Assembly: GCA_048884965.1 (NCBI GenBank)
Contig: JBHLQH010000014.1
Span: 27,375-91,374 of the forward strand
Direction: 5' to 3'
From: Candidatus Thorarchaeota archaeon
GTDB taxonomy: Archaea; Asgardarchaeota; Thorarchaeia; Thorarchaeales; Thorarchaeaceae
Length of the DNA: 64,000 bases
In this document: piece by piece, positions 1,548 through 17,032 of the stretch
Layout of the letters: each line of letters opens with the position of its first letter
Position numbering within the stretch: position 1 is the stretch's first letter
Notes under the pieces: generated by a model
What the model was told of the DNA's origin: nothing
Seen by the model: the letters and a program-made list of their open reading frames with translations, nothing else
The model's database searches: none
Made by a program: the position numbers and the translations under genes

Positions 1548-4500
1548 TCATTTCAGGTCTAGTTTCTCGGGATGAGTATCGTCATAGGCACCATCAGCTG
1601 CTAGAAGTGCTTCAACATCTCTGATAAAACGCTCTTTCTCATCGAGATCTTGATCTGAGGTTTTATCTGACTTCTCAAGATTATCTTGGATTTCAGTATC
1701 CGAAATCGTGGATTCTGCTAAGGCCTCAGTATCTTCATCTAGCGCCAAGAACGAAGTCGTTTCTTTCTTTGATTCAGCCTCCTTAATCTGAACAATGTCA
1801 TTCCGTTCGATTGCATCCATTATTATTTTGTACACTCGTGTTTCTTCCAACCCACAGGCAGCGATTTTATTCGCCATTTCTTCTAGCTTGAATCCTTCAG
1901 TTGATTCAAGATCTGAGATTACGCGCTTCAAGCAGATTGGACCTCGAGGTAGGTTTCCAGCATCTACAATCCTGTGTCTATATTGAAGGAACATATCTAG
2001 CATCTCGTCAAACAGATTGTCAAACTGTGCTTCCTTTATACTATCAATCACAAGAAGGGGCACTTCTTCAAATTCACAATCGAAGGTTTCACCAACTGCT
2101 TTGGCAAATCGAATCATCCGTTCTTCCTGAGTTTTTGAGGGACTCCCGCTAGTGATGAATGCGCATACTAGATTGCGAGTTCGAATTGTCCTTATGATGT
2201 CTGAAACTGGTGTGATTTCCCATTCTCTTTGAGAAACATCAAATTCAGATCTGAATTGTGATATCGCAGTTATGAATGCAGAAATTAGGGAACCATCAAA
2301 TCCTCCCTTCACCATACGTGAATATATGGGAATGCCACTAGCTTTGTGAAGCACCACTATACCTAGTGTATTTCGTACATCATCAAATCTTCTCTTTATT
2401 GCAAGAGCCTGAATATTCTCTCTTCTCTTCTTACGTCTGTAAAATCTTCGCCCTACATATCCCATTGCAGCAATTCCACCAATCATAAGGAAGGGACTGA
2501 ATCGTGTTACAGTTCTTGTTAGAGCTGCTAGTTCACTCATTGTAGGACTCAAATCAGTTTCAATATATTCTGAATCCGACTCAAGAAGATAGTTAGAGCA
2601 GTCAACATAAATTCGAATCCTTACATCTGAATCCGCGGGAGGCATGATGTAAGTCGTAGAGTATACTCCTTGCGTATTTGATTCTTCTAAGATATCAGTT
2701 CCCAAAGGAACGAGATCCTGAAGTATTTGATATGCTACTGTAGCTCCAGATATTGATTCACCTGTTTCACTATCTACTAGTCGCAGACTTAGAATATGTG
2801 AGGTGCCCTCTAAACCAGAGCGACCTTGAATATCTACAATCGATATCAATGCCTCTCTGACATAAAATACCAAGACTGTTTCCTGAGAAATGTACCCAAT
2901 TTCACTGAAGACCAATGACACCTCAAATGAGCCAACTCCATCAGTAGCAATAGATAATGTATAGAAACCAGTTCCGCTCCTAGTCACCATGGCACTTGCA
3001 GCTGCAGATCCCGACAGAGTTACGACTGCATCTTCTATTCTTGTTCCATTATTCATTGAATATGTGTATGTGAAATTATAGGCTCTTCCAAAAACGAGTT
3101 CATCCATAAGTGTAATATCATTCAAGTTAGTATCAATCGGACCAACTTCAAGCTCAAGGGACAACCTGCTTGTTATATGATTAGTCTTATTGGCTGATAT
3201 GATGATTTCCCAAATCCCTACTCTATCTGCCACGAAGATTATGAGATATGTTTCGATCGACTGAGTTAGAGTATATACTATTCCTTCTCTTGGGTTTGTA
3301 TACACCTCGAAAGATGCAGAACTAACATTGCTTCCAATATCTGTTCTAACATAGGCTATTGCAAGCTGATGCTTGCTTCCAAAAAGAATTGATTCGTGTG
3401 CTTCTCCTTCAATGATTCGGAGTTCAGTAGGAACGATCTGGACAAGCAGTGAAAACGCAGTCGTTGATTTCTGATAGTTCGTAAGATTCGCTTGAATGGA
3501 TATTTGGAAGGAAGTAGTATCAGTCACTGAGGGAAGCATTGTCATATTATAGAATCCGTTTCCAACTTCAGAAACAAGATACGTCAGTCCCGCTGGAGGA
3601 TTCACAATTTGAATTGTAGCACCAGTAATAGGATCTCCATAGTCCTCATTATATCTGAGCTGCAATGTGAAATTCTGATCCAATGAAATGGTTGCATCAT
3701 TCATGTGACCAGTCAATCTTGTTTCAATTGGTACTACAACAAGGGAAAATGAAAGATACTGGGCAACATGATTAGTTATGTTAGCTCGAAGGACAATTGA
3801 AAATGTAGTTGCTATCGTTGGAGTGAACACAATGGAGTAATACCCTTCACCAAAATCAAGAGTCGTTCCAATACTGATACCTGTTTGAGGTGATATCTCC
3901 GCCACCTGAATAGTTGCGCCAGCTACACCTGCTCCTGTGATATTACTATACCTCATCAGAATTGCATAGTCATCTCCATATCCTACCAAATCAGCGGTAC
4001 TATTCAGGCAGGAGAAAGTAGTTCCGATTGGGTTCACTTCAACTTCTAGTTGAACAAGAGCCGTAATAAAACTGGATTTGGTTGCAGTGAGTGTTATTTG
4101 CCAGATTCCCGCAGAATCGAATAGAAAGCAGAGTTGATACGCATCCCCTACGCATTGAAGAGTTGCGAATAGTCCAATTGAGGGTGCTGAGGAAATTGAA
4201 ATATTGGCTGACGTGATGTTGGCAACAACATCAGTTCTGATATATGCTAATGTTACAAGGTATGAATCAGTGATAGAAATGGAGTCGGATGAATGTCCTT
4301 GAATCACTATTAGATCTGTTGGAATAACCTGTACAAACAATGAGAATGCAACCGTCCCGTTTTGATAATTGGCTCGATTAGCTCTAAATGAAATTTGGAA
4401 GGAAGTTGCTTCGCTCACAGATGGTATGAGATTTATGCTGTAAATTCCGCCTCCGACCTCAATAGCTTCGAACGATAGACCCTGAGGTAGATCCACAACT

Positions 4501-7352
4501 GAGATACTCGCAAATGAAATACCGCTTAGAGTATCATCTTGGTATGTCAGCTGAATAGTACAGTTTTGGTCTATTGCTATAGTGGCTCCATTGCTATCAG
4601 ACCTCAGAGATGTGGAGATCTGAGTAACGAGAAGACTGAAGGTGAAGTACTTCGTAGCATGATTTGTAAGATTTGCCTTTATCACTAGTGTATAGGTTCC
4701 TACTGTCGCCGGAGTAAGGTCAAATGAATAATACCCATTTCCTTCATCTGTCGAAATCCCTGGAATCAATCCAGAGGGATTGACCTCTACTACTTGCACA
4801 GTTGCACCTAGTAGGCCCGCACCCGTACTATTTGAGTATTGAACGACAAGGTGAAATGTGCGCCCATATGGGATTAGATTCGCAGTTTCGTTAAGTCCTT
4901 CAAATGTTGTTCCAATTTCTCCCACAATCAAGTTGAATGACACAGATCGCTCTTCATGGAATTTCTTGGAAGCTGTTACAGTTACCTTGTACTCATGAGA
5001 AAGAACACCTGTTATCTCAACAGTATAATGTCCATTACCAAGATCAGAGTGATATCCTTCAATCAGACCGAGAACAGGTCCTGAATATGTGACTGTAATA
5101 TTGGCATCTTCTATTCCGACTCCTATGATTTGCTCGTAATCAATATCAATCAGATATACGTCATTCAAGCCTACCTCGACAGGACTGCCATCCACATTGG
5201 ATAATTGAAGTTCTGTAGCATAAGTCGATATAACCTCGAATTGGCATGTAATGTTGTTATAATAAGGTCTAGTTACATTTACGGTAACATGATACCATCC
5301 CGCTCCAAAAAGGGATGTATCAAAATCTGCTTCCCACCAATTCTTTGCAAAGTTTGGAGTAAAGTCAATAGAACATCCTGACCAGTTAGCTATTACAGAT
5401 ATGCTATCGTCAAGAAGATAATTTCCATTATCAGAATCCTGGTACGTTATCAGATTGGAAATTGTCAGTCCCCACTCAATTTCTATTGATGGGAATGATA
5501 CGGTCGCAAACGCTTGATGATACATAGCGAATGTAGTAACTCCATATGCGATTTCTGTACCATTAGTCCAGAGAAACTGAACTTCCCACTCCCCCGCTGT
5601 TGTATTCAAGCCACTCAGAGTTCTCTCACTCGTATTTACAATTCCATCTATTCCCCCATGAATAATTTCCTCAGACCAAATAGAACCATCCGGCATCACC
5701 CATGCAACTTGCACATCATCTGTAAGCGTCGGTATGGTTTCTTGGGTTCCGATTTCTAGATGTGAACGAGTTCTGTTTCCACTTCTGAAGATATCTGTAT
5801 CGTGCCAATGACCTGATTGACCGTCAAACACTTGTGTTGCTAGTCTTCTTGCATAGTTTATTGATTGAAAATCGACCTCCCACCAGCCAAGTCTATCAAG
5901 AATTGAAATGGGTATAGATACGAATGTTGGTTGAATAGAACAGGTACTAGTGACATCATTTGTAAAGGGATCATATATTGTGACATTATCCCAATCTGAG
6001 GGCATGTAGATGAAGACAGTGAAGTTTTCCAACGTCTCCGTCAAATCTCCTCCAATATAAGTGAATGTTGACAAATCTGAACTCTGTCCAGCATCAATCG
6101 TATACGCGACTCCCTTTTGTGTAGGATGAGTTGTCCACGATGTGTTAGAAAAGAAATGCTGCAGGCTCCACACTTCGTATTCAAAAGAAACACTCACGGT
6201 TGAAGTTATACCGACAGACAATGAATTTGAGTCCCAATAGTGATTTTCCAAACTTGCAGAATAGTACCCATTGCTTCCAGCTATCGGAGTATCTAGTGTC
6301 ATTGCATGAAATTGTAGGCCTACTTCCTCTGGCGTTGGTGGAATATCGCTCAGCAATGAAACATCATCAATAGCCACTTCGAAGATACGTGCGTCCGCTC
6401 CATCAATACCTCCATCACCATCATAGTCACGACCGGGGTTTGTGTCAAAATACCATCCATTGTCTGCTTCTACTAGGAGTCCTATGCTTAATGAAAATTC
6501 AGAAGGAGCATTGATTATATTATGGAAAATAACATCATTCCAGTCATTTTTCTCTGGAGTATCTCTCATGAGATTTACAATATCATATCGCTCACTATAT
6601 GCTCCGTTCTCAATATATGCGACTAGCCAGACATCACCGTAGATTGCAAAGTAGCCATTGTCGATTATTCCGCTTAAGTAATTGTACCTAAAAGATAACG
6701 TCATACTATCCGAATGCGGGTTGTTCTGTATTGTTTGGGTCCATAGGTTATACGTGTCGTCATAGTGATAGTACCTGATATACCCGGAGCTAGTATCCAT
6801 TTCTCCTTGGCTCTCAACAGTTACATACCCCTCTGATTCATCGTATGATGTTATCAGATTCTGATCTCCATAACTTGAATCATACCAATCAACACCCCAG
6901 CCTTCTGGATGTGCTGTTATTGCTCCTGGGTAGATATTCTCACCACTACTACCTTCATCAAAAGTCCCATTCTCTGCGAACTCTCGATTCAGATTCCAAA
7001 GGGCAATTTTCGCATTGCTTGCCACCCAATTACTATCATTGTTTATCGGGATGCTTGTGAACGAATTTTCTCCTGTGTCCGTTCTACTCGATATCACTCC
7101 AGTGCTATAGTACCCTGATTGCTCAACAATGATAGAATCCAAAACACCTTCTTTAGTCGATTGGGATAGAATCTCTCTCCTCTTTGGTTCACCATCATCT
7201 ATGTTGCTGAAATCAGGATTGGTTTGCTTCTCATCACCACATGGATTTCGCGGATTATCCAAGGCTGAAGGATTGCTTGATATGGAGAATAGCATCAAGA
7301 AGATAATAGGCAGCATCAACAGATATCTTCTAGTATACTTTCTTGGACACAT
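1548..7352 (-). CDS. Giant (1934 aa) cell-surface single-pass membrane protein: signal peptide, ~100-aa Ig-like repeats, TM helix, cytoplasmic longin-like domain and acidic tail
   Basis: Hydrophobic N-terminus; repeated GxGxYxxxL...A units with many NxS/T sequons; TM FLMIGGIAAMGYVG followed by RRFYRRKKRR; then LGIVVLHKASGIPIY...LISAFITAISQF. Confidence 0.8.
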   Translation of the reverse strand: MCPRKYTRRYLLMLPIIFLMLFSISSNPSALDNPRNPCGDEKQTNPDFSNIDDGEPKRREILSQSTKEGVLDSIIVEQSGYYSTGVISSRTDTGENSFTSIPINNDSNWVASNAKIALWNLNREFAENGTFDEGSSGENIYPGAITAHPEGWGVDWYDSSYGDQNLITSYDESEGYVTVESQGEMDTSSGYIRYYHYDDTYNLWTQTIQNNPHSDSMTLSFRYNYLSGIIDNGYFAIYGDVWLVAYIENGAYSERYDIVNLMRDTPEKNDWNDVIFHNIINAPSEFSLSIGLLVEADNGWYFDTNPGRDYDGDGGIDGADARIFEVAIDDVSLLSDIPPTPEEVGLQFHAMTLDTPIAGSNGYYSASLENHYWDSNSLSVGITSTVSVSFEYEVWSLQHFFSNTSWTTHPTQKGVAYTIDAGQSSDLSTFTYIGGDLTETLENFTVFIYMPSDWDNVTIYDPFTNDVTSTCSIQPTFVSIPISILDRLGWWEVDFQSINYARRLATQVFDGQSGHWHDTDIFRSGNRTRSHLEIGTQETIPTLTDDVQVAWVMPDGSIWSEEIIHGGIDGIVNTSERTLSGLNTTAGEWEVQFLWTNGTEIAYGVTTFAMYHQAFATVSFPSIEIEWGLTISNLITYQDSDNGNYLLDDSISVIANWSGCSIDFTPNFAKNWWEADFDTSLFGAGWYHVTVNVTRPYYNNITCQFEVISTYATELQLSNVDGSPVEVGLNDVYLIDIDYEQIIGVGIEDANITVTYSGPVLGLIEGYHSDLGNGHYTVEITGVLSHEYKVTVTASKKFHEERSVSFNLIVGEIGTTFEGLNETANLIPYGRTFHLVVQYSNSTGAGLLGATVQVVEVNPSGLIPGISTDEGNGYYSFDLTPATVGTYTLVIKANLTNHATKYFTFSLLVTQISTSLRSDSNGATIAIDQNCTIQLTYQDDTLSGISFASISVVDLPQGLSFEAIEVGGGIYSINLIPSVSEATSFQISFRANRANYQNGTVAFSLFVQVIPTDLIVIQGHSSDSISITDSYLVTLAYIRTDVVANITSANISISSAPSIGLFATLQCVGDAYQLCFLFDSAGIWQITLTATKSSFITALVQLEVEVNPIGTTFSCLNSTADLVGYGDDYAILMRYSNITGAGVAGATIQVAEISPQTGISIGTTLDFGEGYYSIVFTPTIATTFSIVLRANITNHVAQYLSFSLVVVPIETRLTGHMNDATISLDQNFTLQLRYNEDYGDPITGATIQIVNPPAGLTYLVSEVGNGFYNMTMLPSVTDTTSFQISIQANLTNYQKSTTAFSLLVQIVPTELRIIEGEAHESILFGSKHQLAIAYVRTDIGSNVSSASFEVYTNPREGIVYTLTQSIETYLIIFVADRVGIWEIIISANKTNHITSRLSLELEVGPIDTNLNDITLMDELVFGRAYNFTYTYSMNNGTRIEDAVVTLSGSAAASAMVTRSGTGFYTLSIATDGVGSFEVSLVFSEIGYISQETVLVFYVREALISIVDIQGRSGLEGTSHILSLRLVDSETGESISGATVAYQILQDLVPLGTDILEESNTQGVYSTTYIMPPADSDVRIRIYVDCSNYLLESDSEYIETDLSPTMSELAALTRTVTRFSPFLMIGGIAAMGYVGRRFYRRKKRRENIQALAIKRRFDDVRNTLGIVVLHKASGIPIYSRMVKGGFDGSLISAFITAISQFRSEFDVSQREWEITPVSDIIRTIRTRNLVCAFITSGSPSKTQEERMIRFAKAVGETFDCEFEEVPLLVIDSIKEAQFDNLFDEMLDMFLQYRHRIVDAGNLPRGPICLKRVISDLESTEGFKLEEMANKIAACGLEETRVYKIIMDAIERNDIVQIKEAESKKETTSFLALDEDTEALAESTISDTEIQDNLEKSDKTSDQDLDEKERFIRDVEALLAADGAYDDTHPEKLDLK
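3135..4915 (-). repeat. Two copies of a ~297-aa three-domain super-repeat within the giant surface protein
   Basis: IGTTFEGLNETANL vs IGTTFSCLNSTADL; ATIAIDQNCTIQL vs ATISLDQNFTLQL; TSFQISFRAN vs TSFQISIQAN; LAYIRTD vs IAYVRTD; GIWQI vs GIWEI. Confidence 0.8.
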
Positions 7353-8207: not shown

Positions 8208-8912
8208 TCATAGAGATGTGCCACACTTTTTGCATCGCGCTGTGCCAACTGCGTTCAAATAGCCACACTTGCGGCACTTTCCTGATATGAAATCCTGCAT
8301 TAATTTTGTCGCAGACCCACGGATATTGAGGATAATCTTATCTGAGAGGCCGAGTCTCTTCTTCGCCTTCGAATCAATCCGGTCACAATATGCAACAAGT
8401 GCTCTCAGTTTTGGTTTGACACGCTCCTCTCCCTTCGATATGCGTTCTCGTTCATCAGTATTGAGATAAGCTTCTTGCTGCACAAGTTCTTGATAGAATG
8501 ATTGGATATTATTGAGTGTAGAAAACATCTCTACTAGCATTTCTCCCATATCCTTTGACTCTGGATTCCTTGATGCAAGCGGAATCCTACTTATCTGTTT
8601 ATCAAGGCTAGCCAGCTCCTTCACTACCTGCTTTGCGACGTTACCTGTTTCCGACCCCCCTCCCCGCCTATAGGTACTAGATGTTTGATCTGCTCCAGAC
8701 GGAAGACGTCTTCCAGTCACTCCATCTCCAAAACGAATCCTCGAAGAGCCATCATCATCTCGTTGTACTCCATATGCTTTATCGTCTTTCATTGACTGGA
8801 CTTTAGATCTTGAGAGACCACGTGTCGTTGAGCTCCCACAATAAGGGCAATCGTTCTCGTTCTCCGGCACCTCTGCGCCACAACTTCCACATTTCGCCAA
8901 CATTAGCACCAT
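8208..8912 (-). CDS. Double zinc-ribbon protein with baseplate-assembly-protein-like core motifs
   Basis: CGSC..CPYC at N-terminus, CRKC..CKKC at C-terminus; central IRFGDGVTGRRLPSG..YRRGGG..GNV and DMGEMLVEMF..FYQELVQQEAYLNT. Confidence 0.7.
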   Translation of the reverse strand: MVLMLAKCGSCGAEVPENENDCPYCGSSTTRGLSRSKVQSMKDDKAYGVQRDDDGSSRIRFGDGVTGRRLPSGADQTSSTYRRGGGSETGNVAKQVVKELASLDKQISRIPLASRNPESKDMGEMLVEMFSTLNNIQSFYQELVQQEAYLNTDERERISKGEERVKPKLRALVAYCDRIDSKAKKRLGLSDKIILNIRGSATKLMQDFISGKCRKCGYLNAVGTARCKKCGTSL

Positions 8913-9294
8913 TCCATGTATTCTTCTTCATATAGTCAGGTTCCTCCTGCTATTAATTTCTCTGGCAATAATGTGAAGTGGGTCAAAGCCCAGAGGCAGT
9001 ACGAATACCTGAATCGTCAAGGAGGTAACCATGGACTTCATAGAACCTTTGAGGATTCTAATTATACAACTTACTCGGAAATCGCGAGCTACAAGAACTT
9101 GTATCGGTTTGTTCGCGGTCTGTTTACTTTCGAGCATCTCTCTGGGTAGAGCGTGTCCTGTAGAGAGGAATATCGTACGCAGGAAGTCCCTAATACTACC
9201 TCAGCTCCAGAAGTAGTGCGGGGTCATATGAGAACCATACCATAAGAGTTACTTAGATAGATGTTCGAACAGACGTATTCGAGGTCAGGGTCAG

Positions 9295-11280
9295 ATGTCA
9301 GACTTCAAACTAGAGGCTCCTTTCAAACCGACAGGCGATCAACCACAGGCGATCAAGAAGCTAATCGAAGGTCTTGAGAGCGGATTGGACCATCAGACAC
9401 TTTTGGGAGTCACTGGTTCTGGAAAGACATTCTCCATGGCGAACGTCGTGGAAGCATACAACAAGCCTACCCTTGTCATCTCTCATAACAAGACACTTGC
9501 AGCTCAACTAGCCTCAGAGTACAAGCAGTTCTTTCCCAATAATGCTGTAGAGTACTTCGTTTCCTACTATGATTATTATCAACCAGAAGCATATGTTCCG
9601 AGCAAGGATATGTACATCGAGAAGGAGGCTGACATCAATGCGGAAATTGAGCGTCTTCGACATTCGACCACGAACTCCTTGCGCTCACGAAACGATGTTC
9701 TTGTGGTGGCCTCGGTTTCATGCATCTATGGTATTGGAGATCCGGAAGCATACGACCATTTCAGGATGTACTTGGAAGTAGGGATGGAGATTGACAGACG
9801 AGAGATTCTCGAGCGACTCGTTTCGATGCAATATGAGCGCAATGACATGGAGATTAAGCCCGGTGTATTTCGTGTGCGCGGTGATGTCATTGATGTGTAT
9901 CCGTCAGCTTCAGAGAATAGCATTCGCATCGAACTTGATGGTACCAAGATTGAGAAGATCTCGACATTAGAGGCATTGACTTCAAAGAGACTCTGGTATA
10001 GTAACTGGACAGAGCTCTTCCCTGCACGACATCACGTCGCCAGATACGACACGATCCTTGAAGCATTAGAACCGATGAAACAGGAGATGGAAGAGCGAGT
10101 TGATTGGTTTAAGAGTCATGGAAAATTGGTCGAGGCAGACCGACTGAAGAGGCGGACCATGTTCGATATGGAGATGCTTCGAGAAACTGGCCACTGTGGT
10201 GGAATTGAGAACTACTCGCGATTGATTGATGGACGCTCACCTGGGCAGAAGCCCTATACACTTCTTGATTACTTCCCTGATGATTTCTTGATGATAATTG
10301 ATGAGAGCCATATGACCATACCTCAGGTACGAGGGATGTATCATGGTGACTTGGCTCGGAAGAACAATCTTGTCGATTATGGGTTCCGACTACCCTCCGC
10401 ACTTGATAATCGACCACTGAAGTTCGATGAGTTCGAGCGGTACATGAAGCGGACCATCTACACAAGTGCAACTCCAGGGAGCTATGAACGAAAGAACAGC
10501 AAACAGATTGTTGAGCAGCTCCTGAGACCTACAGGTCTACTAGATCCTCACATCACCCTCAAGCCAGTCATCAATCAAGTTGACAATCTGATTGCAGAGA
10601 TTCGCGTTACTGTCGGACAAGGGCACCGAGTACTCGTAACGACCCTCACGAAGAAGACCTCAGAGATGCTAACTGAGTATCTTGTCGAGAATGGAGTGAA
10701 GGCACGATATCTCCACTCCGATATTGGCACGGTAGAACGGATCGAGATCATTAGACAGCTACGGCAAGGTAAGTTCAATGTCCTTGTTGGCATCAACCTG
10801 CTTCGAGAGGGATTGGACCTGCCAGAAGTCGGACTCGTTGCGATCATGGATGCGGATAAGGAAGGCTTTCTCAGAACTGATTGGGCTCTCATCCAGACTA
10901 TGGGCAGAGCGGCAAGAAACGCGGATGGTAGAGTCATTCTCTATGCTGATCACACATCCGATGCGATGCAGACTGCTATCGACGAAACAAATCGAAGAAG
11001 AGCGTATCAAAGAAAATACAACGAGGAGCATGGCATAGTTCCTACCTCAATCACGAAGCATGTTCATGACATCGCCATAGGTATCAAGTCGAAGGAGTCT
11101 GTCAAGCAAGCAACCATTGAGGAATTCGACCCACTTGAGGCTGAAGAGATCATGGACTTCATCGTTGATCTGGAAGAGAAGATGAAGGAGGCAGCAAGCA
11201 ATCTTGAATTCGAAAAGGCTGCGAAGCTTCGGGACCAGATTGTTATGTTACGAAAGAAGATCGAGGGCAGTATAGCATGA
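9295..11280 (+). CDS. uvrB: Excinuclease ABC subunit B
   Basis: PTGDQP, GVTGSGKT, FVSYYDYYQPEAY beta-hairpin, DESH, GINLLREGLD, C-terminal UVR (LEFEKAAKLRDQI). Confidence 0.98.
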   Translation: MSDFKLEAPFKPTGDQPQAIKKLIEGLESGLDHQTLLGVTGSGKTFSMANVVEAYNKPTLVISHNKTLAAQLASEYKQFFPNNAVEYFVSYYDYYQPEAYVPSKDMYIEKEADINAEIERLRHSTTNSLRSRNDVLVVASVSCIYGIGDPEAYDHFRMYLEVGMEIDRREILERLVSMQYERNDMEIKPGVFRVRGDVIDVYPSASENSIRIELDGTKIEKISTLEALTSKRLWYSNWTELFPARHHVARYDTILEALEPMKQEMEERVDWFKSHGKLVEADRLKRRTMFDMEMLRETGHCGGIENYSRLIDGRSPGQKPYTLLDYFPDDFLMIIDESHMTIPQVRGMYHGDLARKNNLVDYGFRLPSALDNRPLKFDEFERYMKRTIYTSATPGSYERKNSKQIVEQLLRPTGLLDPHITLKPVINQVDNLIAEIRVTVGQGHRVLVTTLTKKTSEMLTEYLVENGVKARYLHSDIGTVERIEIIRQLRQGKFNVLVGINLLREGLDLPEVGLVAIMDADKEGFLRTDWALIQTMGRAARNADGRVILYADHTSDAMQTAIDETNRRRAYQRKYNEEHGIVPTSITKHVHDIAIGIKSKESVKQATIEEFDPLEAEEIMDFIVDLEEKMKEAASNLEFEKAAKLRDQIVMLRKKIEGSIA

Positions 11281-14186
11281 AGGCAGCGAAAACAACAAAC
11301 CCAGATATGGACACCGAAGGTCCGAAGTCTATAGTGGTAGTCGGAGCTGCTGAGCATAACCTCCGGAATATCAGCGTTGAGATTCCGAAGAATAGCCTGA
11401 CCGTTGTCACAGGTGTTTCAGGGAGTGGAAAGTCAAGCTTGGTCTTTGATACGATCTTCGCTGAAGGCCAGCGAAGGTTCGTTGAGAGTCTCTCTGCTTA
11501 CGCTCGTCAGTTCCTCGGTATGCTCGAGAAACCAAAGGTAGACTTCATGTCAGGTCTCTCACCATCTATCTCTATTGACCAGAAGAGCGTCGGTCGTAAT
11601 CCTCGTTCGACAGTAGGTACGATAACAGAGATCTATGACTTTTTGCGTCTTCTCTATGCGCGTATTGGTGAGCCACACTGTCCTTCCTGCGGAAAGAAGA
11701 TCGAACCTCAGACAGCTCAACAGATCGTTGATAGAGTCCTACAGTTGGATGAGACTACAAAGATTATGATCATGGCTCCCATCGTTCGTGGGCGAAAGGG
11801 AGAGTACCGGAAGGAGTTCCGGGACCTGCTTAAGAAGGGCTTCGTAAGAGCGCGAGTTGATGGCGAGCTCATCGATATCGTGGAAGGTATGTCCCTCGAT
11901 CGGTATTTCGAGCACACCATTGAGGTCGTTATCGATCGACTCAATGTAAAGGATTCAGAGCGAGGAAGGATCTCAGAGGCTGTAGAAGCTGCGTTAGATA
12001 TGGCTGAAGGTGTTGTCACCATCTCCACGGATGAAAGGAACCTCACACTCTCAGAGCAGTTCGCTTGTGTGGATTGTGGAATAAGCTTGCCTGAGATGGA
12101 ACCACGTATCTTCTCTTGGAACACTCCTCAAGGTGCATGTGAGAACTGCACGGGGATTGGCACGATTCGAGAGTTTGATCCTGACCTCTTCATCAGAGAC
12201 CCAAAGCTCTCTATTCGTGAAGGTCTTTTTCTAACTGAGGAATGGAGGACAAAACGGTTCGTCGATGGCCGCTATGACAAGATACTGAAGAAATATGGTT
12301 TGACCGTCGACACGCCATGGAATGAGATGACAGAGAAGCAGAAGAACATCTTGCTCTGGGGCTCAGGGAAGGAACTCTTCGAGTTCACCTGGGAAGGTGA
12401 GAATGAAGAGGTCTCTGCTCAATGGAAGGGAACGTTCAAGAGACCCTTTGAGGGGTGGGCGGAGCGTTCTACTCGACTCTACCGTCAGACAAAATCCGAG
12501 TGGCGAAGGAAAGAGATCGAGAAATTCATGTCTCAGCAAAAGTGTCCTGTCTGCAACGGTAGTAGGCTTCGAAAGGAAGCGCAGGCTGTTACTTTCAATG
12601 GTCGATCAATTTCTGATCTAGATGATATGTCCATCAAGGAAATGCATGAGTTCTTTGGCTCAGTGAAGATCGACCCTCGACTCGATCCGGTCGCACAACC
12701 TATCCTCAGAGAGATTCAGGGACGTATCGAGTTTCTTGAGGAAGTAGGTCTCGAGTACCTTACTCTCAGCAGGACTGCTCCTACGCTTGCTGGTGGTGAA
12801 GCTCAGCGAATCCGCTTGGCAAGTCAGATAGGTTCGAACTTGGTAGGCGTCACCTATGTCTGCGACGAACCTTCGATTGGCTTACACGCTCGTGACAATA
12901 TGCGATTGTTGAGGTCTCTCATGCGACTTCGAGATGTTGGGAATACAGTACTGGTGGTGGAGCATGACGAAGAGACCATGATGCATGCTGACTACATTGT
13001 TGATCTTGGCCCAGGCGCAGGATCGGAAGGCGGTGAGGTTGTAGTCGCTGGTACTCTCGAAGAGATTCTCAAGTCGAAGAAGTCGTTGACTGCGAAGTAC
13101 CTTCGTGGAGAAGAACGAATACCTGTCCCCGGGCAACGACGGAAGCCCAACGGTCGATTCCTTGAGATAAAGGGAGCCCGTCATCATAACTTGAAGAATT
13201 TGGATGTCAAGATTCCACTAGGATTATTCATCTCCGTCACAGGTGTATCAGGGAGCGGTAAGTCAAGTCTAATCGTTGAGACGCTGCAACGAGCTCTGGC
13301 TCGGAAGTTCCATAATGCTGAGGCGACTCCTGGCAAGCACGATAGCATCGAGGGCGTTGAGCAGCTCGATAAGGTAATCGTCATCGATCAGAGTCCCATT
13401 GGAAGAACACCTCGCTCAAATCCCGCGACCTATGTAGGTCTCTGGTCGCCCCTGAGGGATCTCTTCGCATCCCTCCCTGAATCTCAGGTCCGTGGTTACA
13501 AGCCAGGTAGGTTCAGCTTCAATGTTAAGGGTGGACGCTGTGAGAAGTGTCAAGGTGCTGGTGTTGAAATTATTGAGATGCAGTTTCTTCCTCCAGTACA
13601 GGTGACATGCAGTGACTGTAAAGGGCGTCGATACAACCGAGAGACCCTCCAGGTGCGCTATAAGGGAAAGAACATCGCAGACGTCCTATCCATGCGAATT
13701 GATGAGGCTACCATATTCTTTGAGAACGTTCCGTCTGTCTACAACCGATTGAAGACACTATGTGATGTTGGCATGGGTTATGTACAGCTTGGACAACCTG
13801 CGACTACCTTGAGCGGTGGCGAAGCTCAACGAATCAAGCTAAGCAAATTCCTTTCTCGTCCTGCCACTGGCCAGACGTTGATACTCTTGGATGAACCGAC
13901 CACTGGACTCCATTTCGCAGATATCAAGAAGCTGCTTGAGGTACTACACCGCCTCGTAGATCTCGGGAATACTGTGCTAGTCATCGAGCATCAATTGGAT
14001 GTTGTGAAGACTGCGGATTGGGTGATTGATCTCGGTCCCGAAGGCGGGAATGAAGGAGGTTATCTTGTTGCAGAAGGAACTCCTGAGGATATCGCAAATG
14101 CTCCTGAGTCATATACCGGGAAATACCTGAAAGATCTCCTCGAAATGAAGGTTCCACTCAGTGTTCAGAGGAGGTCCACGAAATGA
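11277..14186 (+). CDS. uvrA: Excinuclease ABC subunit A, paralog 1
   Basis: Two Walker A motifs (GVSGSGKS), EGQRRFVESLSAYARQF, zinc modules, DQSPIGRTPRSNPATY, LSGGEAQR; ATGA overlap with uvrB. Confidence 0.97.
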   Translation: MKAAKTTNPDMDTEGPKSIVVVGAAEHNLRNISVEIPKNSLTVVTGVSGSGKSSLVFDTIFAEGQRRFVESLSAYARQFLGMLEKPKVDFMSGLSPSISIDQKSVGRNPRSTVGTITEIYDFLRLLYARIGEPHCPSCGKKIEPQTAQQIVDRVLQLDETTKIMIMAPIVRGRKGEYRKEFRDLLKKGFVRARVDGELIDIVEGMSLDRYFEHTIEVVIDRLNVKDSERGRISEAVEAALDMAEGVVTISTDERNLTLSEQFACVDCGISLPEMEPRIFSWNTPQGACENCTGIGTIREFDPDLFIRDPKLSIREGLFLTEEWRTKRFVDGRYDKILKKYGLTVDTPWNEMTEKQKNILLWGSGKELFEFTWEGENEEVSAQWKGTFKRPFEGWAERSTRLYRQTKSEWRRKEIEKFMSQQKCPVCNGSRLRKEAQAVTFNGRSISDLDDMSIKEMHEFFGSVKIDPRLDPVAQPILREIQGRIEFLEEVGLEYLTLSRTAPTLAGGEAQRIRLASQIGSNLVGVTYVCDEPSIGLHARDNMRLLRSLMRLRDVGNTVLVVEHDEETMMHADYIVDLGPGAGSEGGEVVVAGTLEEILKSKKSLTAKYLRGEERIPVPGQRRKPNGRFLEIKGARHHNLKNLDVKIPLGLFISVTGVSGSGKSSLIVETLQRALARKFHNAEATPGKHDSIEGVEQLDKVIVIDQSPIGRTPRSNPATYVGLWSPLRDLFASLPESQVRGYKPGRFSFNVKGGRCEKCQGAGVEIIEMQFLPPVQVTCSDCKGRRYNRETLQVRYKGKNIADVLSMRIDEATIFFENVPSVYNRLKTLCDVGMGYVQLGQPATTLSGGEAQRIKLSKFLSRPATGQTLILLDEPTTGLHFADIKKLLEVLHRLVDLGNTVLVIEHQLDVVKTADWVIDLGPEGGNEGGYLVAEGTPEDIANAPESYTGKYLKDLLEMKVPLSVQRRSTK

Positions 14187-17032
14187 CAGGATACATATCT
14201 GTTCGCGGCGCTGAGGAGCACAATCTGAAGCATGTGAATGTCGATATCCCCCGAGACCGCCTGGTTGTCGTTACTGGACCGAGTGGCTCAGGCAAGAGCA
14301 CATTGGTGTTCGATACGATCTTCGCTGAGGGTCAGAGACGATATGTCGAATCACTTAGCTCCTATGCACGAAGATTCCTTGGCAGACTCGATAAACCAAA
14401 GGTCGAGAAGATAACTGGCTTACCTCCTGCAATCTCCATTGAACAGAAGGGCCGAACGAAGAACCCTCGCAGTACTGTCGGTACCAGCACAGAGATTCAT
14501 GACTACTTTCGACTGCTTTACGCCAATATCGGAATTCCTCATTGTGTTCAATGCTCACGTCCTATGGAACAGCTAACCCCTGAGTCTGCAGCGCGACTGC
14601 TACTTCATGAGAATGGCGGACAACGCATTCATGTCCTCGCACCAGTCGTCCGAGATGAATCGGGAAAGCATGAGGATGTGCTAGCGAACCTCCTAGGCAA
14701 TGGTTTCGCTCGTGTACGAGTCGGCAGCGAGATTCTAGAGATAGAGGGTATCGAGATAGATGGTCGAAAGAAACATTCCATTGATGTTGTCGTCGATAGA
14801 TTGGAGCTTGCTCAGAAGAATAGAGAGCGACTCATTGGTTCCTTAGAGACCGCTTTAGAGGTAGGGAACGGTATCGCGATCGTTCAGCGAGAGGGTACAG
14901 AAGACCTCACCTTTGCAGATCAATTGATGTGCCCATATTGTGGCATTCAGTATGAGAAGCTCGGCCCCAAAGCCTTCTCGTATAACCGACCTGATGGAGC
15001 GTGTCCTGAATGTAATGGACTCGGTGTCACAATGGACATCAATCCTGAACTTGTGATATATGATGATGGGATGACCGCATGGGATTTGGCTGCGAAAGCA
15101 TTCATGAATCGGAAATGGCTGATGAGGAGAATCGATGCGTTGGCTGAGGCTGTCCCCGAATTCGATCCATATATCCCCTATAGAAACCTCCCTGACAACA
15201 TCAAAGAGCTCTTCCTTTGGGGACAGCCTGAAGTGCAAATCACCTTCATAGCAGAGAGTGAGACATCCAGATGGGAGGTTACACGCAAATGGAGTGGAGT
15301 TATGCCATGGCTAAGGACATCATTTGAGAAAGGTAATACTAGCACTAAGGCTTGGTATCGTTGGCAGGCGCAACAGATTGGTGAGAAATACGCATCTCGG
15401 ACAACATGTCGATCATGTAAAGGTCGAAAATTGAAGCCTGAGGCACTGGCTGTCACAGTCGGTGACAAATCAATAGATGAAGTATCATCAATGACCATTG
15501 AGGCTGCTTACAACTTCTTTGACAAGATTATACTGAATGAGCGAGACCTTCGTATTGCTGAGCTCGTATTGAAGGAGATCAAAGCCAGACTGAAGTTCCT
15601 TCTTTCCGTCGGTCTGGAATATCTGAACCTCGATAGACTGTCCATGACCTTGAGTGGTGGTGAGAGTCAGCGTATCCGATTGGCTACCCAGATCGGTTCA
15701 GCTCTTACAGGCGTGTTATATTGCTTGGACGAGCCTTCGATAGGTCTCCATCCTCGTGACATCAATCGGTTGATAGAAACCTTCTACAACCTGCGTAGTC
15801 TGGGTAATACCGTCGTTGTGGTAGAGCATGATAGGGATACTATCGAGGCTGCCGACCACATAATAGACCTGGGTCCATTCGCCGGAGTGCATGGCGGTGA
15901 GATTATCACACAAGGGTCTCCAGATGAGGTGCTTTCGAATAGTGAATCCCTCACCGCTCAGTATCTCTCAGGCTCAAAACAGATAGCTATCCCTCGTGAG
16001 AGGCGGAAAGGGAATGGTCATTCCTTGAAGCTAAAGGGAGCGAAACAGAATAACCTCACCGGGATTGATGTGGATTTTCCACTTGGCAAGTTCATCTGTG
16101 TAACTGGCGTGTCAGGAAGCGGGAAGAGTTCATTGCTGAATGAGACCCTCTACAAGGCACTAGCCCGCGAGATGAACGGTTCCAATGTTACGCCTGGGAA
16201 GTATGACTCCCTTGAAGGAATAGAGCACATCGACCGCCTCGTTCTTGTCGACCAGAGTCCAATTGGCAGAACACCAAGATCCAATCCTGCGACCTATACG
16301 AAGGTCTTCGGAGAAATCAGAAACCTGTTTGCGATGATGCCTGAAGCAAAGACACGAGGGTATGGTCCGGGCCGTTTCAGCTTCAATACGCGGGAAGGAA
16401 GGTGCGAGAAGTGTCAGGGAAGTGGAGTGCTCCAGGTGGAGATGCATTTCATGTCTGATGTATTCATTCAATGTGATGTCTGCAAGGGCAATCGTTTTGA
16501 TCGAGAGACCCTTGAAATCGCTTACAAGGGCAGAAACATCACACAGGTACTATCTATGACGATTGAAGAGGCACTCTTCTTCTTTGGTGAGATTCCAAAA
16601 ATCGCTGACAAGCTCAGGACTCTGATTGACGTTGGCCTAGGATACCTGCAGCTTGGACAGCCTGCGACCCAATTGAGTGGCGGTGAAGCTCAGCGGATGA
16701 AACTGGCATCCGAACTTTCACGGCGAAGCACTGGAAACACGCTCTATATTTTGGACGAGCCGACTACTGGGTTATCAGCTTCAGACGTTGACACACTCTT
16801 GAAGGTAATCAATCGCCTACTTGAATCTGGCAATACTGTGATCATGATCGAACACAATCTCGAGGTCATCAAGACCTGCGATTTCATTGTAGATCTTGGT
16901 CCTGAAGGAGGCGACAAGGGCGGGAAGCTAGTTGCAACAGGAACTCCGGAGGAAGTTGCAGACATAACGAGGTCCTATACTGGGAATCACTTACGAACTG
17001 CACTCTATAGTCCCAATGCAAAGTACGAGTAG
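14183..17032 (+). CDS. uvrA: Excinuclease ABC subunit A, paralog 2
   Basis: GPSGSGKS and GVSGSGKS Walker A motifs, EGQRRYVESLSSYAR, two LSGGE signatures, DQSPIGRTPRSNPATY; ATGA overlap with paralog 1. Confidence 0.96.
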   Translation: MTGYISVRGAEEHNLKHVNVDIPRDRLVVVTGPSGSGKSTLVFDTIFAEGQRRYVESLSSYARRFLGRLDKPKVEKITGLPPAISIEQKGRTKNPRSTVGTSTEIHDYFRLLYANIGIPHCVQCSRPMEQLTPESAARLLLHENGGQRIHVLAPVVRDESGKHEDVLANLLGNGFARVRVGSEILEIEGIEIDGRKKHSIDVVVDRLELAQKNRERLIGSLETALEVGNGIAIVQREGTEDLTFADQLMCPYCGIQYEKLGPKAFSYNRPDGACPECNGLGVTMDINPELVIYDDGMTAWDLAAKAFMNRKWLMRRIDALAEAVPEFDPYIPYRNLPDNIKELFLWGQPEVQITFIAESETSRWEVTRKWSGVMPWLRTSFEKGNTSTKAWYRWQAQQIGEKYASRTTCRSCKGRKLKPEALAVTVGDKSIDEVSSMTIEAAYNFFDKIILNERDLRIAELVLKEIKARLKFLLSVGLEYLNLDRLSMTLSGGESQRIRLATQIGSALTGVLYCLDEPSIGLHPRDINRLIETFYNLRSLGNTVVVVEHDRDTIEAADHIIDLGPFAGVHGGEIITQGSPDEVLSNSESLTAQYLSGSKQIAIPRERRKGNGHSLKLKGAKQNNLTGIDVDFPLGKFICVTGVSGSGKSSLLNETLYKALAREMNGSNVTPGKYDSLEGIEHIDRLVLVDQSPIGRTPRSNPATYTKVFGEIRNLFAMMPEAKTRGYGPGRFSFNTREGRCEKCQGSGVLQVEMHFMSDVFIQCDVCKGNRFDRETLEIAYKGRNITQVLSMTIEEALFFFGEIPKIADKLRTLIDVGLGYLQLGQPATQLSGGEAQRMKLASELSRRSTGNTLYILDEPTTGLSASDVDTLLKVINRLLESGNTVIMIEHNLEVIKTCDFIVDLGPEGGDKGGKLVATGTPEEVADITRSYTGNHLRTALYSPNAKYE

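Follow-up and report, generated by a model that had tools for sequence, protein, structure and literature searches.

We analyzed a 64,000-nucleotide stretch of a Candidatus Thorarchaeota genome (positions 27375-91374 of contig C14 in assembly G000; "the window" below) and, within it, a gene at 8208-8912 on the reverse strand. The open reading frame encodes a protein of 234 amino acids (aa) plus a stop codon, P0001, in which two zinc ribbons enclose two segments that, by sequence comparison, are homologous to baseplate wedge proteins of contractile injection machines and occur in the reverse of the usual order. The assembly amounts to 4.09 Mb in 99 contigs and is 95.7% complete, with 7.2% contamination. 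Coordinates are collected in Table 1.

Table 1. Map of the P0001 gene in window coordinates.
Feature	Position	Strand	Basis
Whole gene, P0001	8208..8912	-	Open reading frame list and translation; orthologs at 34-42% identity
N-terminal C4 zinc ribbon, aa 5-28 (C8, C11, C22, C25)	8829..8900	-	Pfam, alignment
FGDG..YRxGxG beta segment, aa 41-100	8613..8792	-	Homology to an internal TIGR02243 segment
Family-specific linker helix, aa 101-117	8562..8612	-	Helical in both models
Helical hairpin, aa 118-180	8373..8561	-	Homology (probable beyond aa 158) to the N-terminal baseplate wedge helix D.G..L.E....D.L..YQ....E.YL.T
Family-specific C-terminal helices, aa 181-211	8280..8372	-	Family conservation; confidently helical in both models
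C-terminal C4 zinc ribbon, aa 212-234 (C213, C216, C227, C230)	8211..8279	-	Invariant cysteines

The two zinc ribbons and the start of the gene

An earlier sequence-only reading of this DNA had proposed two C4 zinc ribbons, and these are well supported. The Pfam model Zn_Ribbon_1 (PF13240) matches P0001 in two stretches at 36.6 bits (cut-off 25), and DZR (PF12773) reaches 27.6 bits (cut-off 27.3). The best of the Pfam ribbon stretches is aa 7-27, the CxxC pairs begin at aa 8 and 22 and at aa 213 and 227, and all eight cysteines are invariant among orthologs. The C-terminal ribbon follows the pattern C-x2-C-x3-N-x6-C-x2-C and is similar to eL40 and RanBP2-type fingers. The NCBIfam model for eL40 (NF003161) matches this ribbon only, at 23.8 bits and E 2.3e-5, and does not reach its curated cut-off of 54. 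When a profile of the family was compared with the sequences of solved structures, it retrieved eL40 chains in the PDB at E 6e-4, and nothing except such eL40-type ribbons.

The public gene call, P0002, is only 194 aa long; it starts at M41 and so cuts off window positions 8793-8912 (reverse strand), where the first ribbon is encoded. Because all orthologs keep this ribbon, we consider the public start to be mis-called, and of the possible starts, M1 or M4 is the most likely. Candidate A/T-rich, TATA-like boxes lie upstream of the ATG at ~8951-8959 and ~8928-8936. A scan for promoters and terminators of the bacterial type yielded no signal of use for an archaeal gene.

Homology to baseplate wedge proteins

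The NCBIfam model TIGR02243 ("putative baseplate assembly protein") matches P0001 in two stretches with E 6.1e-10 and 38.3 bits. In the better of these, aa 41-119 align with model positions 404-477 of 659. P0001 as a whole does not reach the curated cut-off of 155.8 bits, and no match extends beyond model position 477, i.e., into the gpJ/dimerization region at ~480-659. PHROG 219, a baseplate wedge subunit, matches weakly (E 2e-3), and Pfam has no model for full-length TIGR02243-type proteins.

Two full-length TIGR02243-type proteins, P0004 (823 aa) and P0005 (901 aa), are encoded in tandem on contig C12 of the same genome, and BLASTP aligns both with P0001. With P0005, aa 44-87 align with 598-641 at 52% identity (E 4e-13), and a second, long and gapped alignment at 27% identity (E 2e-5) places the helix at ~aa 120-160 opposite ~77-118. 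With P0004, aa 109-159 align with 182-230 (E 3e-5) and aa 36-74 with 511-549 (E 6e-5). An exhaustive phmmer search of 1.84 billion representative sequences produced 1504 hits at E<=1e-3, and the best 150 are mostly proteins of 800-1000 aa that match P0001 in two stretches. For the FGDG segment, P0005 is as near, at its 52% identity, as any protein among these representatives.

The matches involve the same residues in the small and the large proteins. In the FGDG segment, F61, G62, D63, G64, G67, R69, Y81, R82, G84 and G86 are conserved both in the family of P0001 and in 62 baseplate proteins. The helix has G123, Y140, Q141, E147, L150 and T152 in common with these proteins, and the second helix of the hairpin aligns with them at L169, L172 and Y/F175. 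The columns that are most conserved in the 62 baseplate proteins are those that are invariant, or nearly so, in the small family.

On these comparisons, the resemblance of both motifs to TIGR02243/Afp11-like wedge proteins is true homology and not chance, as the sequence-only reading had supposed. The limits it gave, aa ~44-92 and ~119-156, are here corrected to ~41-100 and 118-158, the latter probably reaching aa 180. Detectable homology ends at ~aa 95-104 for the FGDG segment and, by hidden Markov model (HMM), at ~aa 150-160 for the helix; MAFFT carries the helix alignment on through the second hairpin helix, past a family-specific insertion of seven residues at the turn. For the linker helix (aa 101-117) and the last helices (aa 181-211), no baseplate counterpart was found. 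The parts of the baseplate protein that P0001 keeps are the hairpin and the FGDG segment.

Reversed order of the segments

To compare the order of the segments, HMMs of both were built from the family alignment and run on the large proteins among the phmmer hits. Both segments were found in 121 of these 123 proteins, and the helix precedes the FGDG segment in all 121; the helix, aa 118-158 in P0001, matches that of 122 large homologs. In P0001, the same HMMs place the FGDG segment (aa 41-94) ahead of the helix (aa 117-182). The sequence-only reading had thus recognized the inversion correctly. It had also described the helix as N-terminal in full-length proteins; the helix does lie near the N-terminus, and not at it, since its median start is aa 65. 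The gap between helix and FGDG segment in the full-length proteins has a median of 527 aa and a minimum of 199.

An origin by deletion between the tandem paralogs P0004 and P0005 was also considered. The FGDG segment is nearer to P0005, the downstream paralog; the simple model is not fitted by this, and we leave the idea as speculation.

Structure predictions

An AlphaFold2 model from the nine-sequence ortholog alignment has a mean predicted local distance difference test score (pLDDT) of 70.8. It contains confident helices at 86-108, 120-145, 152-178, 181-187 and 191-210, and the FGDG region (31-88) is poor. A second alignment (A3) additionally contained 62 FGDG fragments and 62 helix fragments of full-length proteins as separate rows. 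The resulting model has a mean pLDDT of 79.1, with 64-72 in the FGDG region, and a predicted template modelling score of 0.37; it shows the FGDG region as a beta-hairpin (strands 47-51 and 57-61) with loops. The low confidence of this segment in a monomer would be understandable if it folds against other chains.

Foldseek found nothing at E<=1e-3 when both models were compared with the PDB, and nothing among the viral models of BFVD. VIA-align against 48,161 PDB representatives returned generic helical bundles and hairpins at Z 8-11 (e.g., FlgN at 11.0 and CsoR at 8.8). Chain 6u5b_h of a pyocin R2 baseplate matches the helical part through its residues 2-120, with Z 9.2 and a root-mean-square deviation of 4.0 over 118 aligned residues, although this match sits among the generic bundles and does not discriminate. 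A prediction of a complex of three P0001 copies, run without controls, scored 0.00 and speaks neither for nor against self-association. The full-length P0005, compared with solved structures, matched one Baseplate J-like chain, 9gtp_1K, at E 1.3e-3.

Conservation and selection

Full-length relatives of 223-232 aa, with the identities given in Table 1, are present in public data and in related genomes. One of them is NCBI NHJ12726.1, annotated as [quoted passage not shown]. In the alignment of nine full-length orthologs, the eight ribbon cysteines, C176 and the cores of the motifs are invariant; the invariance of C176 is confined to the small family. Long-form members also match one another over the region of aa 181-211, at E 4e-12 to 5e-16.

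At least four genera of a single Thorarchaeota family (f1) have full-length orthologs. In a sample of 400 genomes of the phylum, the family profile hit 21 genomes, 16 of which are among the 85 genomes of f1. The family of P0001 is so far seen only in Asgard archaea, mainly in this one Thorarchaeota family. Intact long forms are present in G000, G003, G006, G014, G028, G367 and G371, and partial or frameshifted copies in G013, G368 and G380. The orthologs of G013 (locus L015, 863-1539, reverse strand) and G380 (C36:16000-16677) are split over two to three reading frames, and are either frameshift pseudogenes or assembly errors.

We estimated dN/dS, the ratio of nonsynonymous to synonymous substitution rates, by the Nei-Gojobori method for two unsaturated ortholog pairs. 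Between G006 and G003 (dS 0.96), it is 0.24 for the small gene and 0.09-0.19 for flanking genes; between G014 and G028 (dS 0.63), the values are 0.26 and 0.09-0.12. In the same genome pairs, dN of the small gene is ~1.5-4 times that of flanking genes, and between genomes the small protein is 35-61% identical, compared with 72-90% for its neighbours. The small gene is under purifying selection and is evolving faster than its neighbours.

Given the frameshifted or split copies in G013 and G380, it might be supposed that the gene is a relic without function, left by a degraded tail gene cluster, or else an assembly chimera. However, this is highly improbable and largely refuted: at least seven genomes, from different samples and different assemblies, contain intact full-length orthologs, neither the cysteines nor the motifs vary, dN/dS is ~0.25, and this architecture turns up again on long contigs, of 154 kb and 669 kb. 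Both a lack of matches to baseplate families and a one-off chimera are excluded. The proposal of a domesticated baseplate fragment is in keeping with a gene that is conserved and under purifying selection, retains the signature residues, has lost the rest of the baseplate protein and lies among ordinary cellular genes.

Related architectures

Shorter proteins of 111-133 aa, in which two zinc ribbons enclose an FGDG segment and the helical part is missing, are found in f1 as well as in two further Asgard families. G003 and G006 each combine a short with a long form. Short and long forms agree in the first ribbon, the linker and the FGDG segment (e.g., 44% identity over aa 7-87). Examples of short forms are the proteins P0014, P0015, P0018 and P0028 and the genes at L016 1471-1866 (forward) and L022 8001-8336 (forward). 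A further variant, P0021, is 432 aa long, with a long insert behind the first ribbon.

In a tree built from the 56 columns of the FGDG module, a branch sets all 17 ribbon-flanked modules apart from the 62 baseplate modules; its support is just 36%, although the clustering of labels beat all 500 shuffles. A single capture event for the ribbon-flanked modules is compatible with this tree, which neither shows nor rejects it.

Ribbon-less metagenomic minis also join the two segments. The order is native in a cluster of 22 members around P0016 and in P0098, P0107 and P0133, and permuted in P0087 and P0119. No tail gene cluster was found around any of these minis. Because such independent minis join the same two segments in either order, the two segments may well form a self-sufficient unit. 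Loci of ribbon-less minis include L023 7051-7599, L024 5996-6544 and L026 4344-4940 (all forward). Genes of the P0016/P0163 cluster lie near GH25 lysozyme and patatin genes, and P0119/P0178 has the permuted order.

Genomic context and the injection system of the same genome

On its upstream side, the P0001 gene faces a divergent UvrB-UvrA cluster of bacterial type (window 9295-17032, forward), which then includes a third open reading frame of 949 aa. On the downstream side, a PrcB_C-domain gene on the opposite strand is followed by the gene of a 1934-aa surface protein. The latter protein (window 1548-7352, reverse) is rich in repeats, with an N-terminal hydrophobic segment, many N-x-S/T sites and, near aa 1590, a hydrophobic segment and basic stretch followed by a cytoplasmic tail of ~330 aa; it resembles giant surface proteins that are expanded in this lineage.

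No tail genes were found in the window, in agreement with the sequence-only reading. A search of the genome found the only tube, sheath and full-length TIGR02243 genes of G000 on contig C12, where they belong to a complete extracellular contractile injection system (eCIS) at ~9320-36665 (L006 4321 to L007 11666). Its genes encode a sheath, a tube, a T4_baseplate-like protein, a Pvc16-like cap, an AAA ATPase, a spike OB domain, gp25, the two TIGR02243 paralogs, a gpI/Mu gp48-like protein, a DUF6519/beta-helix (fibre-like) protein and an eCIS_core-domain protein. The guanine-cytosine content of the eCIS is 0.40, compared with 0.43-0.44 in its flanks. The contig is archaeal, and the family of one flanking gene is hugely expanded in sister genomes. 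This eCIS is the only one among the ~85 sampled genomes of this archaeal family. Its gpI/Mu gp48-like protein, P0179 (L008 6103-8499, forward), has a CxxC-x10-CxxC ribbon inserted at aa 259-277, of the same general type as the ribbons of P0001 (BLASTP E 0.008).

Among ~10 carriers of the long form, full-length TIGR02243 genes are present in G000 only. Because the carrier genomes are 74-99% complete, we describe eCIS genes as not found, rather than as proven absent. With this proviso, tube genes were not found in G003, G006, G013, G014 and G028, gp25 was not found in G006, G013, G014, G028 and G367, and a sheath was not found in G006, G014 and G367. G013 has a weak sheath match. A sheath-like match over the Pfam cut-off lies within a 955-aa frame of G028 (C158:4061-4600, forward), a genome with 9% contamination in which tube, gp25 and TIGR02243 genes were not found; it may be a fragment of a second Asgard contractile injection system (CIS) or contamination. 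Full-length TIGR02243-type genes are present in ~8 of the 400 sampled genomes of the phylum, and the small protein was not found in the seven other Asgard genomes that have them. The small protein does not follow the presence of an eCIS, and this pattern argues against an obligatory eCIS partnership of the P0001 family.

The sequence-only reading had suggested an adaptor for an eCIS encoded elsewhere. In a wider form of this idea, P0001 would serve the C12 eCIS as a remote accessory part or regulator, whether as assembly chaperone, adaptor or additional wedge chain. It is true that the complete eCIS of G000 includes two TIGR02243 paralogs in tandem, that one of these, P0005, is as close to the FGDG segment as any library protein, and that the gpI-like protein of this eCIS has a ribbon of the same type. 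However, the gene is on another contig, among DNA-repair genes, and the small protein is missing from the other eCIS-bearing Asgard genomes sampled. Moreover, orthologs are present in 93-99% complete genomes where TIGR02243, tube and gp25 were not found. Because most other carriers show none of these three, an adaptor role is unlikely, and it does not hold as a general role; we consider the accessory explanation as a whole very unlikely.

Elsewhere, too, the small gene has ordinary cellular genes as neighbours, and these differ between genera. G006, G003 and GCA_016840845.1 have a common neighbourhood of Lsm, a protein of 346-380 aa with no known function, a UbiE-type methyltransferase and FtsZ, to which GCA_016840845.1 adds ribosomal-protein genes. 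In G014 and G028, the small gene adjoins an Rce1-like protease gene, and in GCA_011365025.1 it is among metabolic genes. The 380-aa neighbour has its G000 ortholog on contig C25, with internal stops and no small gene adjacent to it. On this ground, the G000 copy, which shares only ~41% identity with those of its congeners, is both displaced and divergent. The C25 ortholog (C25:37943-39046, reverse, locus L028) is 58% identical to the 346-380-aa neighbour and reads through two TGA codons and one TAG, so it is possibly a pseudogene or else an alignment that runs across frames.

Some of these neighbourhoods raise the question of whether the ribbons are the functional part. P0001 could be a zinc-ribbon factor that binds nucleic acid or protein, e.g., a regulator or a ribosome- or RNA-associated protein, with the core as a mere spacer or dimerizer. 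In this case, one could understand why both ribbons are invariant, why the C-terminal one is like eL40 and RanBP2-type fingers, why the short forms retain both ribbons and lose the helical part, and why some copies adjoin Lsm, FtsZ and ribosomal-protein genes. However, the ribbon matches are generic, eL40 is below its family cut-off, and the neighbourhood varies from genus to genus. Conservation of the baseplate signature residues also equals that of the cysteines, which argues for a core that is more than a spacer. We regard this explanation as rather improbable.

Possible function

[quoted passage not shown] The core bundle consists of six helices, to which each chain contributes two, and the sheath initiator gp25 clasps it (PMC9942802, PMC8894135). 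The N-terminal regions of TIGR02243, TssF and gp6 are homologous and constitute the gp25-binding part (PMC4604203). We found no paper that gives residue ranges for the trifurcation unit.

Given this organization, our preferred interpretation is that P0001 is an exapted, circularly permuted wedge-assembly core, held between two zinc ribbons and serving protein-protein assembly. We place about half of our confidence in it. P0001 would be a cytoplasmic protein and a miniature of the eCIS baseplate wedge core of the Afp11/gp6/gpJ type. In the full-length proteins, the hairpin would build the six-helix core bundle and the segment after the wing would build the trifurcation unit; these would be the two places where three wedge chains are joined, and where gp25 docks. 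The FGDG segment is probably the trifurcation unit, because of its linear position after the wing in the full-length proteins. Because the retained pieces are the core-bundle hairpin and this putative trifurcation unit, P0001 would most likely use the same surfaces to associate with further copies of itself or with a partner protein, and would need no resident injection machine for this. The terminal ribbons would then act as clamps or as binding modules.

It is important to state what weighs against this interpretation. In the monomer models, confidence in the FGDG segment is no more than low to moderate, the helical part looks like many generic bundles of helices, and the FGDG segment is equated with the trifurcation unit from linear order only. 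Oligomerization of P0001, or its association with a partner, is putative. Finally, the patchy distribution, the faster evolution, the frameshifted copies in G013 and G380 and the different position of the gene in G000 are more to be expected of a conflict or accessory gene than of a housekeeping scaffold.

This last group of observations leads to the alternative that P0001 is an antiviral or anti-CIS decoy, a possibility that the sequence-only reading had also raised. Mimicking the part of a wedge chain that forms the triplex, it would enter the nascent wedges of an invading virus with a contractile tail, or of a mobile CIS, and, having no ring-forming dimerization domain, poison baseplate assembly. 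The protein has indeed kept the chain-joining elements and signature residues and lost the ring-forming part. Its gene is patchily distributed within the family and even within genera, exceeds flanking genes in dN to the extent given above, is frameshifted in two genomes, exists in several architectural variants and, in G000, is away from the position common to its congeners. However, no HMM in PADLOC-DB 2.0, which covers described defence systems, matched P0001 at E<=1, and there is no recognizable defence island around the gene. With the queries used, no relatives were found on IMG/VR viral contigs or, by tblastn, in GenBank phages. Full-length TIGR02243-type genes are also rare in the phylum, and a contractile-tailed virus of these archaea was not identified in this analysis. 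We therefore consider the decoy unlikely. A more elaborate version, in which the protein is a host-encoded "poison subunit" that caps the baseplates of contractile-tailed viruses or invading CISs while these assemble in Asgard archaea, with the short forms and bacterial minis as parallel inventions, appears slightly less likely still.

If, as we prefer, the module still assembles like a wedge core, it would be a compact natural unit for trimerization or docking, and would clearly exemplify how structural parts derived from viruses or CISs were exapted in the Asgard lineage. Should it instead interfere with baseplate assembly, it would represent a novel principle of defence and could become a tool for blocking the assembly of CISs or myoviruses. 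In either case, such proteins are at present annotated merely as zinc ribbon domain-containing, and in the public set the start of P0001 is mis-called.

Comparison with known systems

To our knowledge, genes of baseplate wedge proteins do not normally occur outside the gene clusters of tails or injection machines. In the P0001 family, the two elements that appear to join wedge chains have been excised, reordered, framed by zinc ribbons and maintained by selection in archaea, most of which have no detected machine. We found no report of such a protein from Asgard archaea in the literature; the architecture is new and is made of known modules.

With proteins of the Pfam DZR and Zn_Ribbon_1 families, P0001 has in common two CxxC-x10-CxxC ribbons that score over the Pfam cut-offs. 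However, DZR has adjacent ribbons in one domain of ~45 aa, whereas those of P0001 (aa 8-25 and 213-230) are ~185 aa apart, with the baseplate-derived core between them. The archaeal eL40-type ribbon aligns with the C-terminal ribbon, with a score under the cut-off.

The orphan minis (the P0016 cluster, P0098, P0107, P0133, P0087 and P0119) are similar to P0001 in that they consist of just the helix and the FGDG segment, in ~125-200 aa, and lie outside tail gene clusters. Unlike P0001, they have no zinc ribbons, are mostly in native order and are probably bacterial.

The wedge proteins of the TIGR02243/Afp11-Pvc11-Alg11 type, which belong to the gp6/TssF/gpJ superfamily, have the same N-terminal core-bundle hairpin and the same FGDG..G.R.P.G......YR.G.G segment, with the signature residues. 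P0001 differs from them in its size (234 aa, compared with ~800-1000 aa), in the reversed order of the segments, and in having neither the wing insertion nor the C-terminal gpJ/dimerization part. It adds two terminal zinc ribbons and family-specific helices, and its family is unlinked to tail genes and is mostly present in genomes where none were found.

In wingless wedge proteins, i.e., P2 gpJ, Tri2 of R-pyocins and diffocins, and gp22 of the cyanophage Pam3, the core-bundle helices adjoin the trifurcation unit, with no large insertion between them (PMC9942802, PMC10996793). Unlike P0001, these proteins have the native order and a ring-closing dimerization domain, and they are encoded in tail gene clusters. 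They are nevertheless the closest natural analogue of its compact helix-plus-beta core.

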